The notes below the pieces were generated by a model. The model searched no databases, was not told the DNA's origin, and saw only the letters and a program-made list of their open reading frames with translations. This document shows positions 3,257 through 11,307 of a DNA stretch of 11,568 nucleotides, piece after piece; the stretch's first letter is position 1, and each line of letters begins with the position of its first letter. This DNA is from a virus. Where the stretch lies: IMG/VR virus record IMGVR_UViG_3300014913_001117; one strand, 5' to 3'. The position numbers and the translations under genes are program-made.

Positions 3257-3963
3257 CGCTTGGGTGGGAGGGCTCTGGGCGTCATACCCGAATGAGGGAG
3301 CGCTTCCTCTTTGGCCATTGAGGCTTCCGCGGCTGCGACCCTGGCAGCCCGTCGAGCGTCGATGCTAGAGGACTGACCGATCTTGTGGGTCCGGTTGTAG
3401 GCGCTCAGCATGTCGAGGTCACGATGAGCTGTGGTACCCAGCCGCTTCATGGGATCAGGCGCCCAGGGGTCGAAGGTTGGGTTGGCGAGATCAAAGTGCG
3501 TCTCACCCATCCGAATGACACCGCCACCGGTGGCGGGGAACATGAGCTTGAGAGCTATCGTGTGCTCTTCGTAGGCTCGCGGGCTGGCCCGGAAGGCGGA
3601 CTTGATGATGACCCCGAAGCCGGGGGTGCAGTAGCGAACGATGCTGAGGTCGGCGCTTGCTACGACAACACCGTCGTGCTTGGCCTCCTGGAAGTCGTCA
3701 GGGCGTTGAAACAGACGCCAGAAGGGCAGCACGTGCTCCAGAGCCTCGAAGCCTTCCTCGCCCTCGATGGGGTAGTGGTGAAGGGGCTCGATGACGACGC
3801 CACCGGTCTTGCCGAACTCGGGGTCGATGGTTCCGCTGAGATGAACGGTGCCCTCGGAGACACCTGCCTTGGCCAGCGTGTGGATGTGGATGTAGCGCGG
3901 ATGCTTCGAGGTGTCGAAGACGGGCCTGGGGGTGGTGGTCTGAATGAGCATGAGAGGGTCCAT
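3253..3963 (-). CDS. hypothetical protein (weak Tpt1/KptA-like patches only, unverified)
   Basis: ATG at 3963 sits directly against a TACACCGA motif. Short patches resemble the Tpt1 C-lobe: TVHLSGT...GKTGGVVI versus YVHLSAD...GKRHGKPVVL, and LPFW in both. The Tpt1 N-lobe and the catalytic Arg of GKRHG are absent, so the assignment is weak. Confidence 0.45.
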   Translation of the reverse strand: MDPLMLIQTTTPRPVFDTSKHPRYIHIHTLAKAGVSEGTVHLSGTIDPEFGKTGGVVIEPLHHYPIEGEEGFEALEHVLPFWRLFQRPDDFQEAKHDGVVVASADLSIVRYCTPGFGVIIKSAFRASPRAYEEHTIALKLMFPATGGGVIRMGETHFDLANPTFDPWAPDPMKRLGTTAHRDLDMLSAYNRTHKIGQSSSIDARRAARVAAAEASMAKEEALPHSGMTPRALPPKR

Positions 3964-4080
3964 ACACCGAAATGAGAAACGGACCCCACGAAGGAGGTCC
4001 GTTGACGGGGGGTTGTCTAAGCCCACCTGGTCCGCTGCCTACACCGAAAGTCAGCTTTCCTAGTCCTCTTCATACACCGG
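3963..4080 (-). promoter_or_regulatory. intergenic region of the minus operon: three TACACCG(A/G) motif copies (3963-3970, 4040-4047, 4073-4080) and an 8-bp hairpin
   Basis: AACGGACC (3978-3985) and GGTCCGTT (3996-4003) form a stem with a 10-nt loop. In minus sense it is followed by TTTCTCATTT, then the motif and the ATG. Confidence 0.35.
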
Positions 4081-4830
4081 CCAGCCGTTCAGCCGGTGCA
4101 TTTCGTCGAGCGTCTCGGCAACGAAGGTGTCGAGCTTGGCCACGAAGGGTTCGGCTACCTCTTTGAAGCCGGCTGTCGGGTTGTCACCCAACGTGTACTT
4201 GGCTCGAATGGCGCACTGGGCCATCGTGTTGTCGATCAGGGACGCGCTCATGTGGGCGAAGAGGGGAGCTGTTGCCGCCACCTTGTCTTTGACCTTCTGT
4301 GGGCACCCCTTCTCGGTGACCCCTGGGACGGCGAGATTGAGCAAGACCCCCTGGAGGTGTCTTCCTACCTCGGCTAGCCGTTCTTCGCTTGCGGGCGGCT
4401 GCTGGGGTTGGGGTGGCTTGCTGTTGAGGGTGAAGCCCTCCTGGATCCTCGGCATGAAGGGTCGAAGAGCCTCGGGGGCGACCAGGTCGGGTGGTCCAAT
4501 GAAGACGAGCCGCTGCATGTAGCGGTTATCGAGCCGGAGCTGGGGGTTACCCTCTCCCAGAGCTTTGACGATCTCAGCGTTCCCGAACCAGTCGCCGGGG
4601 TTACCGATGAGGACGAAGACAACTTCGTCCCTTGTGGGTGTGTGCTCCTGGAGGTCCTCGAAGGCGACACCCTCTACGACCTCCAGGAGGTGCCTCTTGG
4701 ACTCGAACCGCTCCCGAAACCCTGCTGCCGTCTCGACGGGGTCCGTGGTCGCGATGTAGATCATGGGGGTGAGACAGCGGACGTGAAAGAGCACGCCGAG
4801 GTCTTGTTCGAGAATCTGCTTGAACGCCAT
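4060..4830 (-). CDS. hypothetical two-domain protein, first gene of the minus operon (possible SLOG/LOG-like Rossmann N-domain, a P/Q-rich linker, then a helical C-domain)
   Basis: N-terminal region is MIYIATTDP...VVFVLIGNPGDWFGNAEIVKAL, loosely reminiscent of the SLOG/LOG PGGxGTxEE region. The linker is KPPQPQQPPASEE. CCGGTGTA lies 9 nt upstream of the ATG at 4830. Confidence 0.45.
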   Translation of the reverse strand: MAFKQILEQDLGVLFHVRCLTPMIYIATTDPVETAAGFRERFESKRHLLEVVEGVAFEDLQEHTPTRDEVVFVLIGNPGDWFGNAEIVKALGEGNPQLRLDNRYMQRLVFIGPPDLVAPEALRPFMPRIQEGFTLNSKPPQPQQPPASEERLAEVGRHLQGVLLNLAVPGVTEKGCPQKVKDKVAATAPLFAHMSASLIDNTMAQCAIRAKYTLGDNPTAGFKEVAEPFVAKLDTFVAETLDEMHRLNGWPVYEED

Positions 4831-4839
4831 ACTAGGTCC

Positions 4840-4865
4840 TACACCGGCGAGGTCGTTTTGGTGTA
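4840..4865. promoter_or_regulatory. inverted TACACC ... GGTGTA pair in the 45-bp divergent intergenic region
   Basis: TACACCGGC at 4840-4848 lies 9 nt before the minus ATG at 4830. GGTGTA at 4860-4865 lies 10 nt before the plus ATG at 4876. Confidence 0.45.
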
Positions 4866-4875
4866 TGAAACTTCC

Positions 4876-5124
4876 ATGGCCATCGGCATCAATCTCGACT
4901 CAGAGTTCGACGACGATCACCGCGACGAGGGCTCGATGTTTGGCCCCAAGCCTGGCACTTGGTGGGTGACCTCGAAGTCTGACCCTCGGTTCAATATGGA
5001 CGGCACTGCCCTCGTTGGGGGCTTCCGTTGCCCACCCGAAGCCCGTGAGGCGTTCGAGGCCAAATCCAAGGAGCTAGGCGTTCCGATTCCCGACGACCTG
5101 GAGTTCGGGTACATGAAGGACTGA
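4876..5124 (+). CDS. hypothetical small acidic protein (82 aa)
   Basis: GC3-rich frame. ATG at 4876 lies 10 nt downstream of a GGTGTA half-motif. Divergent from the minus operon. The longer ORF 4408..5124 is the antisense of the 4060..4830 gene. Confidence 0.4.
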   Translation: MAIGINLDSEFDDDHRDEGSMFGPKPGTWWVTSKSDPRFNMDGTALVGGFRCPPEAREAFEAKSKELGVPIPDDLEFGYMKD

Positions 5125-5127
5125 CCT

Positions 5128-10052: not shown

Positions 10053-10363
10053 CAGGGAAGCACGCAGGCCCACTGGACTTCGAGCACATGCTCGGGTCCT
10101 GGCTCGATGGGCTCGAAGGACTGAACCCTCTCACCGATCTCAGGGGCTCGAAGGACAGCTCGGTTGACCGTGATGGGCGCGGAGGGTTGAAGCTCGACCT
10201 TCATGTGGCTGTTGAACCGAAACTCGACGGGGAGCTGCTCGCTAACGGGCTCGTCCTCGTTGTAGAGCTGGATGTGGGCTCCCTGGGCCTCGGCACCCAT
10301 CACCAGGTCGGGGATGGGTAGGAAGGTGATCCCGATGAGCTGAAGGAGGGTCCGGCGCTTCAT
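10052..10363 (-). CDS. small secreted protein (Sec signal peptide, AEA-Q cleavage site)
   Basis: ATG at 10363 (the ORF track starts at GTG 10381). N-terminus MKRRTLLQLIGITFLPIPDLVMGAEA|QG. GGAGAGG SD-like sequence. TGACCGGTGTA motif 14 nt upstream. Confidence 0.45.
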   Translation of the reverse strand: MKRRTLLQLIGITFLPIPDLVMGAEAQGAHIQLYNEDEPVSEQLPVEFRFNSHMKVELQPSAPITVNRAVLRAPEIGERVQSFEPIEPGPEHVLEVQWACVLP

Positions 10364-10376
10364 GACCTCTCCAGCA

Positions 10377-10387
10377 TACACCGGTCA
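10377..10387 (-). promoter_or_regulatory. TACACCGGTCA motif copy (minus sense TGACCGGTGTA) upstream of the 10363 gene
   Basis: Identical 11-mer to 11297-11307. Overlaps the TGA stop of the upstream gene. Confidence 0.45.
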
Positions 10388-10675
10388 ATCGTACTCGGCT
10401 GCGAACAGGTCGCAGGGGTCGCCCTCACCGTGCTCCAGGCTGGCCCCGATGCCTTCGAGGGCGGCCTCTGTCTTCTCAGTCCAGTCCTCGTCCTGCCGGG
10501 CCTCTTCCTCGGTGACATTCGAGCAGGCGAACGACGTGTAGTATTTGCCCGATGGTTTGAGAGCGAAGACCGTCCCCAGGAAGACGCGACGAGTCCGACC
10601 ATCCCCGTCCTCGGTGGGTTCCCACTCGGCCTTGTCCAGCTCTGTCCGGACGGCCTCGATGTTCAGCTCGCTCAC
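10385..10675 (-). CDS. small highly acidic protein (96 aa, net charge about -15)
   Basis: GTG start at 10675 overlaps the upstream TGA as GTGA. GC3-rich. About 24 D/E against about 9 K/R. Confidence 0.45.
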   Translation of the reverse strand: MSELNIEAVRTELDKAEWEPTEDGDGRTRRVFLGTVFALKPSGKYYTSFACSNVTEEEARQDEDWTEKTEAALEGIGASLEHGEGDPCDLFAAEYD

Positions 10676-11286
10676 TTACGACTCCTTGCCTTCTGTGCTC
10701 GCCGCTCCTTGCGGTTGGGCTTGTACTCGATGATGTTGAAGTCCATCTTCTCGGCCGGCTGGGGGCCTTCCCAGTCCTCGGGAGCGTCCTCGGGGATGCG
10801 TCGCCAGTTGGTCAGACCCTCGGGCAGCACCCGTGAGTAGTAGCCGTGGCTCGGGGGGTTGAGGTGCTTGTCTCGGATCCCCACGTCACCGAGCCGGCTG
10901 GCCACCGTGACGAGCACTGTCGAGCCCGCTGGGGCAGTCCGGATCGTGGTGTTTTCCTCGACCGGGTGAGTGCCGTTCCACTCGTGCATCTCGTGGTCTT
11001 CGACGAGGTCAGCCCAGAGGAACTCGTCGGGCTTGCGCCAGTCCTTGGCCACGAAGAGTAGGTCCAGGGCCTCGTCCTCCGTCAGCTTGGCCGGGAAGCG
11101 GTGGTCCTGACCCTCTTCGAGGTTGGGGATGACCAGCCCTCGGCTGACGACTACCTCGACGTAGTCGTCCCCCATGCCCTGGCTCTGGCAGTAGGGGCAC
11201 AGGCGGGTGTCCCCAGGGCTGTCACCCTCTTCGGCGGGGCGGACCCTCAAACAGCTATCGCAGGCCCAGTACAGTTGCTCCGTCAT
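10672..11286 (-). CDS. zinc-ribbon protein with a basic C-terminal tail
   Basis: ATG at 11286 (the ORF track starts at GTG 11301). N-terminal CDSC...CPYC forms a four-Cys ribbon. C-terminal KPNRKERRAQKARSRK is basic. CCGGTGTA lies 10 nt upstream. Confidence 0.5.
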   Translation of the reverse strand: MTEQLYWACDSCLRVRPAEEGDSPGDTRLCPYCQSQGMGDDYVEVVVSRGLVIPNLEEGQDHRFPAKLTEDEALDLLFVAKDWRKPDEFLWADLVEDHEMHEWNGTHPVEENTTIRTAPAGSTVLVTVASRLGDVGIRDKHLNPPSHGYYSRVLPEGLTNWRRIPEDAPEDWEGPQPAEKMDFNIIEYKPNRKERRAQKARSRK

Positions 11287-11296
11287 TGTTCTCAGA

Positions 11297-11307
11297 TACA
11301 CCGGTCA
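11297..11307 (-). promoter_or_regulatory. TACACCGGTCA motif copy upstream of the 11286 gene
   Basis: Identical 11-mer to 10377-10387. Overlaps the TGA stop of the partial upstream gene. Confidence 0.45.

Follow-up and report, generated by a model that had tools for sequence, protein, structure and literature searches.

The 11,568-nucleotide stretch of viral DNA filed in IMG/VR as IMGVR_UViG_3300014913_001117 (in the following: the window) carries a short, oriented sequence box, CCGGTGTA, ahead of several of its genes. The motif is real and strongly non-random. It is best read as a -10-region element that functions without a -35 element in a probable huge phage and its high-GC relatives. Comparison of these sequences makes it probable (roughly 0.6) that the box is a compact phage promoter for leaderless or near-leaderless mRNAs.

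The exact 8-mer, written as TACACCGG, occurs six times in the window, on the plus strand at 4073, 4840, 8754, 10377 and 11297 and on the minus strand at 8795-8802. In 200 dinucleotide-preserving shuffles of the window, 0.15 copies were expected on average and the maximum was one. Three variants that are kept in relatives have to be counted with these copies: TACACCGA, with one mismatch, is found at both 3963 and 4040, and the core GGTGTA at 4860-4865. An earlier note on this DNA had described a recurrent motif with copies pointing toward the downstream gene, and both statements were borne out, all box copies in the window being oriented in this way. Its description of the copies as start-proximal applies to six starts, which follow the box after 9, 10, 9, 13, 10 and 11 nt, but not to the copies at 4040 and 4073. 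The distance of 48 nt given for the gene of a major vault protein (MVP) homologue has to be corrected to 51 nt. The two identical 11-mers TGACCGGTGTA that had been reported to lie over stop codons were both found, overlapping the TGA at 10385-10387 and 11305-11307. Here, the box at 11297-11304 overlaps the TGA of the upstream open reading frame (ORF) and the box at 10377-10384 that of gene 10385-10675.

Three further elements of the earlier description did not hold. The proposed full palindrome TACACCGGTGTA has no copy in the window and none in 20 related loci, and the site is asymmetric, which weakens the alternative of a dimeric operator. No degenerate copy exists at 8611-8618; the nearest similar sequence, CGGGTGTA at 8602-8609, lies in the MVP coding region antisense to the gene and, as it falls in Tyr-Thr codons, is a coding coincidence. 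The degenerate copy at 236-243 (CCGGTGTT), 22 nt from the ATG at 266, is without the final A and has no conserved equivalent in the relative L004; since 6.8 one-mismatch matches are expected, it is probably due to chance.

Related loci were taken from contigs of other metagenomes, which were reached via their MVP homologues; samples with relatives are JGI 3300033141 and ENA ERZ23486227. Five of them have a GC content of 62-64% and MVP identities of 89% (L004), 86% (L018), 90% (L013, partial match), 79% (L015) and 74% (L005). They contain 7, 3, 2, 2 and 6 exact 8-mers, respectively, compared to 0.08-0.7 expected in each. In alignments of the window with these five loci the box is unchanged and the flanks are variable. 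The box upstream of the MVP gene is identical across five genomes with divergent flanks, the box at 4073-4080 is kept in L004, L005 and L015, and the box at 10377 has orthologues in L004 (4479) and L005 (8700), both with 10-nt spacing. The box is not present in the relatives of lower GC content (41-52%; L001-3, L006-12, L014, L017) and is thus restricted to the high-GC sub-lineage. An 8-mer frequent in L001 and L003, TATTTCAA, was considered as a counterpart of the box and rejected because it has no start association.

Positional statistics were calculated on the 65 kb formed by the window and the five high-GC relatives, which hold 26 copies of the exact 8-mer compared to approx. 2.2 expected. 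Ranking of all 4096 hexamers by their occurrence 9-10 nt before the ATG or GTG opening an ORF of at least 50 amino acids placed GGTGTA first: 25 of its 72 copies were found at this distance against a background of 2.4% (binomial p ~1e-22), while the reverse orientation accounted for 1 of 72. In a second, independent test on the 40 nt upstream of 90 starts, taken unchanged from the database or from our own calls, GGTGTA was the most enriched hexamer as well (20 observed, 1.65 expected). Of 25 sites, 15 had a gap of 10 nt between core and start and six a gap of 9 nt; the other four had gaps of 7, 11 or 13 nt. Some starts called in the database for the relatives are probably wrong (L004: 4495, 10749, 14203 and ~17544; L005: ~948). 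The likelier starts are ATG or GTG codons located 10 nt after the box (14 nt in L005), which match the N-terminus of the window orthologue where one exists.

Alignment of the 25 sites, anchored on the core and read toward the gene, gave the asymmetric consensus yCGGTGTA[T/G]G (CCGGTGTAKG). Conservation is limited to box positions -2 to +8. Nothing is conserved farther upstream, indicating that there is no -35-like element. The positions after TA are weaker and richer in A/T (K-G-W-W), the hexamers reading TAKGWW. Sixteen of 20 box genes have no match to a Shine-Dalgarno (SD) sequence (GGAG/GAGG/AGGA-type, -17 to -4); such sequences are common ahead of operon-internal genes and of the leadered MVP gene. 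The word CCGG is no more than mildly under-represented overall (70 observed, 115 expected), and an explanation by restriction or methylation was set aside on that account. A literature search on the 8-mer found it nowhere described as a motif.

The surroundings of the box were inspected for terminators and for the arrangement of genes. A good intrinsic terminator is located at 3978-4003, and the box at 3963 begins right behind its T-run. In L004, the T-run of the terminator after the MVP gene is at once followed by a box (8792) in the arrangement TTGTGGTGTA-N9-ATG (8780-8806), the core being GGTGTA-N9-ATG. With the box directly behind a terminator, a transcript containing the box would need a promoter within the terminator. 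At the same place in the window (5918-5940, minus strand) and in L005 we observed GGCACC, TTGTGGCACC-N8-ATG, so that another conserved word takes the place of the box before an orthologous gene.

Between the divergent genes starting at 4830 and 4876 lie 45 bp (4831-4875), which contain two opposed boxes and no other conserved sequence. The divergent pair 8702/8812 has the same build; the spacers between the paired boxes differ, with 12 nt in the first (4840/4858) versus 33 nt in the second (8754/8795). A consensus scan detected no sigma-70-type promoter in the window. Two genes change their position within a unit between genomes. In the window, gene 820-1119 lies inside an operon, overlapping the gene upstream of it, and carries no box; in the rearranged surroundings of L004 it opens a unit and has GGTGTA-N10-GTG at its start. 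Gene 9231-9806 takes second place in its unit in the window; in L005, which lacks the first gene, it has a box at 10 nt. Judged from these arrangements, the box marks the first gene of a predicted transcription unit and not any particular gene. The box at 3963 precedes a four-gene unit (3253-3951, RNA ligase 2669-3256, PARG 1896-2672 and 1660-1899).

Boxes are also found at the borders of variable segments. The region upstream of the gene family of 10052-10363 is different in all three genomes compared (window, L004 and L005) but has the box at its end in each. L004 and L005 both lack genes 10385-10675 and 10672-11286. The identical 11-mers bound the segment 10388-11307, which may be a cassette gained or lost via recombination between promoter boxes.

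The suggestion of the earlier note that the motif is a dedicated promoter element, possibly for leaderless transcripts or an alternative sigma factor, is the one favoured by comparative evidence, namely spacing, orientation, conservation, the position behind terminators, the divergent regions, the lack of a -35 element and the small number of SD sequences. In our model, a multisubunit RNA polymerase with a sigma-type factor, encoded by the phage or by its host, would read CCGGTG as duplex DNA upstream of the bubble, and the TA of the box would be the nucleation point at -12/-11. With the A of the ATG as +1 and a gap of 10 nt, the T and A of the box fall at -12 and -11, which are the two positions where melting is nucleated in sigma-70-type promoters. 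Transcription would start about 10 nt beyond the box, at the A of the ATG or 1-3 nt from it, and most box mRNAs would hence be leaderless and translated without an SD sequence. The same box would drive the leadered MVP mRNA (51-nt leader with a 5′ hairpin and an SD sequence) and probably also one small non-coding RNA. As it thus serves the MVP leader and a non-coding unit as well, the box appears to have a role apart from the adjacent start codon. A second motif class, described below, also abuts starts in relatives, which suggests that a leaderless design is general in the lineage. The assumed geometry matches that of the bacterial leaderless signature TANNNT, whose first T precedes the start site by ~12 bp (PMC3160421), and that in Deinococcus, where the end of the hexamer lies 6-7 bp ahead of the ORF (PMC12340547). 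An activator site resembling a MotA box near -30 was considered and rejected, as the start codon follows just 9-10 nt beyond the box.

Several points weigh against the promoter reading. The start site ~10 nt downstream of the box is one that we infer. The fourth base after TA, corresponding to -7, is not a conserved T (A 11, T 6, C 4, G 4; n = 25), and in the register assumed here TG falls at -14/-13, one position away from the canonical extended -10. Because of the unconserved T and the offset TG, we prefer not to class the box with ordinary sigma-70 -10 elements and suspect a dedicated factor. Genes for a sigma factor or a polymerase were not found among the loci examined (window and relatives); Pfam and PHROGs recognised no sigma factor, polymerase or DNA-binding regulator in the window, and no gp55, gp33 or sliding-clamp genes turned up in the 11-23 kb pieces of the high-GC lineage. 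At 10377, the 13-nt gap and an SD-like GGAGAGG fit a short leader better than a leaderless mRNA. Furthermore, the loci are partly orthologous, which reduces the sample to roughly 17 independent gene positions, not 25 or more. A more far-reaching version of the model, in which a divergent gp55-like sigma factor or a phage polymerase would start at the ATG, many genes would be leaderless and translated independently of SD sequences, and the boxes would double as breakpoints of cassette exchange, is put forward as a less likely possibility.

The main competitor of the promoter reading, in our opinion an unlikely one, is an operator- or stoperator-like site. A regulator that is monomeric or binds in an oriented manner would occupy the box over -10 regions and switch the gene set together, the weaker underlying promoter (TAKGWW) being read by host RNA polymerase. 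CCGGTG, the best-conserved part of the box, sits immediately upstream of the expected -10 hexamer, and three tandem copies lie within 118 bp (3963-4080), as this explanation would have it. Moreover, the box shares several properties with the 13-bp stoperators of Cluster A mycobacteriophages as far as these are mentioned in PMC3203893: it is a short site without symmetry that follows the direction of transcription, recurs in narrow intergenic spaces and in places overlaps stop codons. However, an operator does not need a fixed start distance of 9-10 nt, the box is not accompanied by a second conserved promoter element, and the 45-bp divergent regions are otherwise empty. The palindrome of a dimeric repressor was found nowhere in the loci searched, and the searches of the window with Pfam and PHROGs yielded no recognisable DNA-binding regulator. 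In addition, the relative L017 (66% MVP identity) carries a gene for a T4-type capsid. Phages with T4-type capsids are usually lytic.

Less probable again is a signal at the RNA level, in which the box would lie in the 5′ untranslated region as a non-SD translation element or as a binding or cleavage site of a phage RNA-binding protein, much like the start-associated sequences of Cluster K mycobacteriophages. The tight distance to the start codon, the orientation with the gene, the absence of most SD sequences and the lack of a box at operon-internal genes, which could use translational coupling, agree with such a role, and GGUG can pair with CACC of the 16S rRNA 3′ tail. At 11-12 nt from the AUG, however, GGUG is beyond reach for that part of the anti-SD sequence, and we rejected a reading of the box as an SD sequence on its spacing and because there is no complementarity past GGUG. 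An RNA signal also leaves the position right behind terminator T-runs unaccounted for, the 45-bp divergent regions leave no space for promoters upstream of the box, and the box is likewise found 51 nt from the SD-bearing MVP ATG and ahead of a non-coding unit. Start-associated sequences of the kind described in PMC3203893 lie at 3-7 bp and contain AGGAG; the box has neither property.

Recombination micro-homology at gene-cassette boundaries as the main role, in the manner of the promoter-stem-loop cassettes by which T4-type phages shuffle genes and with secondary or no promoter activity, would account for the segment between the two 11-mers that is missing from L004 and L005 and for the exchanged region upstream of the 10052-10363 family, but is very improbable, as it explains neither the spacing nor the orientation, nor why the box is conserved at positions that are stable, for instance the MVP gene; it is compatible with the promoter reading, being probably a consequence of promoter repeats.

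The features of the window are compiled in Table 1.

Table 1. Box copies, predicted transcript elements and genes with family matches in the window.
Feature	Position	Strand	Remarks
Box CCGGTGTA, extended TGACCGGTGTAT	11297-11304	minus	10 nt before ATG 11286 of gene 10672-11286
Box CCGGTGTA, extended TGACCGGTGTAT	10377-10384	minus	13 nt before ATG 10363 of the signal-peptide-like gene 10052-10363
Box CCGGTGTA	8795-8802	plus	9 nt before ATG 8812; unit 8812-9234 + 9231-9806; divergent partner of the MVP box
Box CCGGTGTA	8754-8761	minus	51 nt before MVP ATG 8702 (45 nt to in-frame ATG 8708)
Box variant TTGGTGTA	4858-4865	plus	10 nt before ATG 4876; unit 4876-5124 + 5128-5403
Box CCGGTGTA	4840-4847	minus	9 nt before ATG 4830 of gene 4060-4830
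Box CCGGTGTA	4073-4080	minus	Within the last codons of gene 4060-4830; without downstream start codon
Box variant TCGGTGTA	4040-4047	minus	Followed by strongly conserved GGCRGYRGACCAGG and two hairpins
Box variant TCGGTGTA	3963-3970	minus	11 nt before ATG 3951, directly after a terminator T-run
Predicted MVP 5′ leader	8703-8743	minus	Hairpin near the predicted 5′ end, then conserved AACACCGAGG(T)AAATGAAG
Candidate small non-coding transcript or 3′ element	3971-4030	minus	Two hairpins
Intrinsic terminator after MVP	5940-5973	minus
Microbial PARG	1896-2672	minus
RNA ligase	2669-3256	minus
MVP homologue	5991-8702	minus	903 amino acids, full-length, shoulder and repeat domains

Two of the predicted transcripts have structured regions behind the box. 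The MVP leader carries an SD-like GAGG 8 nt before the ATG, and its hairpin was found in five sequences with weak covariation. In the region 3971-4030, hairpin 1 has the form GGTGGG...CCCNCC, with one stem position that is T-A in L004, A-T in L005 and mismatched in the window. Hairpin 2 corresponds to the terminator 3978-4003 with its T-run. The GTG at 4026 is in frame, but L004 has a stop there, so that an ORF start at this position is not conserved. The segment 3971-4062 (minus strand) is a candidate small RNA of ~55-90 nt behind the tandem boxes at 4073 and 4040, with the terminator at its end. The box at 4073-4080 may be an upstream tandem promoter of this non-coding unit. A search of Rfam gave no relevant match.

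Apart from the box, other motifs were observed close to gene starts. The second start-abutting class, CTCAACA-N13-CTCGTAGT-N6-ATG, is found in L004 (164-3156), L005 (425-6257) and L018 (540-2048) and, cut by the end of the sequence, at 1-25 of the window. It precedes a run of small unannotated genes, often with a hairpin between its two blocks. Its AAC...CGT spacing resembles promoters of extracytoplasmic function (ECF) sigma factors, and the layout recalls T4-type promoter-stem-loop cassettes. A search of IMG/VR with this motif for more high-GC contigs returned two matches of 47% GC only, both without the box. In the non-coding region 1-265 of the window, a 24-nt inverted repeat on the plus strand (34-57 / 168-191, 88% complementary) encloses 110 nt. 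The region 34-191 has an RNA fold z-score of -3.9 and no Rfam match, and the arms are kept in L004 (~14540-14700), where a promoter-like CTCAACA-N13-CTCGTAGT lies just upstream and no ORF follows. This region may be a structured non-coding RNA.

A sigma-54-like site, TGGCACG-N4-ATGC, is located at 1399-1414 (plus strand), 14 nt before the ATG at 1427; its GG and GC positions are kept in L004 and L005 with divergent flanks. The word CTTTCTTGT (minus strand: ACAAGAAAG) is found twice within 1323-1352, at a distance of 21 nt. Its second copy, kept in L004 and L005, precedes the GTG at 1316, the probable start of gene 1116-1316, by 8 nt. Similar words, CTTCTTGT, occur in hairpin loops of relatives.

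The window has a GC content of 63% and is densely coding, with ~19 genes that show a strong third-position GC bias. Family matches were obtained for only three of them, a microbial PARG, an RNA ligase and the MVP homologue, and comparison of the window proteins with PHROGs added hardly any information. The MVP gene contains an 18-nt tandem repeat in three copies (8149-8202), which is translated into a repeated peptide of acidic residues and lysine. Look-ups of the identical MVP protein, with either start, gave no entry, an exact 49-mer was absent from IMG/VR, and a scan of genome contigs with MVP yielded no relative. Within the GenBank phage collection, matches to the MVP protein are limited to three uncultured phage genomes of 462-735 kb. 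Relatives with 58-60% MVP identity are present in IMG/VR, one of them on a 318-kb contig, and more than 4000 metagenomic MVP homologues exist, many on contigs of 300-430 kb. The capsid gene of L017, of the T4 Gp23 type, is 10 kb away from its MVP gene. Most likely the window is part of a huge tailed phage. The label "island" used in the earlier note is doubtful, since the context resembles a huge phage.

If the promoter reading is correct, the box would provide a handle on uncultured phages by marking transcription units and correcting start-codon calls, and a route to the promoter-recognition factor of the phage. It would be one regulatory class beside the ECF-sigma-like start-abutting class and the single sigma-54-like site. 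The lineage would then express many genes as leaderless mRNAs, a mode documented so far mainly in Actinobacteria, Deinococcus-Thermus and some of their phages.

Among known elements, extended -10 promoters (TGnTATAAT) resemble the box in that extra upstream bases replace the -35 element. However, their TG is located at -15/-14, one base off the hexamer, while the TG of the box directly abuts TA (GG-TG-TA) and is preceded by four additional conserved bases (CCGG). Stoperators are not known to keep a fixed distance to start codons, and they come from temperate phages whose repressor is known; in contrast, no repressor is evident among the window genes. As far as described in PMC3203893, the stoperators of Cluster A phages resemble the box in their asymmetry, in their orientation with transcription and in their many copies within short intergenic spaces. 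Further properties are shared by the start-associated sequences of Cluster K mycobacteriophages. They are specific to a phage cluster, asymmetric and oriented, lie just before mostly ATG starts, sometimes over the upstream stop codon, and are conserved across related phages at non-homologous genes (PMC3203893). These 13-bp sequences have the SD core AGGAG at 3-7 bp from the start and a proposed translational role (PMC3203893), whereas the box keeps 9-10 nt from the start, contains no SD core and has some copies remote from start codons.

The leaderless -10-only promoters of Deinococcus-Thermus and Actinobacteria have TA ~11-12 nt upstream of the ATG as in the box (PMC3160421, PMC12340547). Absence of an SD sequence, a dispensable -35 element and a predominance of ATG starts are common to both. 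Unlike the TANNNT promoters, the box conserves the GC-rich CCGGTG upstream of TA and does not conserve T at -7. Its start sites are predicted ones, and it is specific to a phage lineage, host-wide use not being demonstrated.

Functionally, the box comes closest to the T4 late promoter, a single TATA box of 8 bp (-13 to -6) that has no -35 element and is read by the minimal sigma factor gp55 (PMC2988020). Both are single elements of ~8 bp in the -10 region that precede many phage genes and lack a -35 sequence. The box is GC-rich and unrelated in sequence, containing neither TATAAATA nor a close variant of it. T4 late mRNAs have SD-bearing leaders, whereas box mRNAs mostly have no SD sequence, and the box-driven genes (RNA ligase, PARG and MVP) are not obviously late. 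The only T4-type marker among the relatives is the Gp23 capsid domain in L017, where a box CTATTTAA precedes six starts with variable leaders; no gp55, gp33 or gp45 homologue is evident in the pieces of the high-GC lineage. No principle is changed, given that promoter boxes specific to phages have been described before, as have leaderless promoters. The box would be a known kind of element, and what is new is its sequence, its GC-rich form and the lineage in which it is used.

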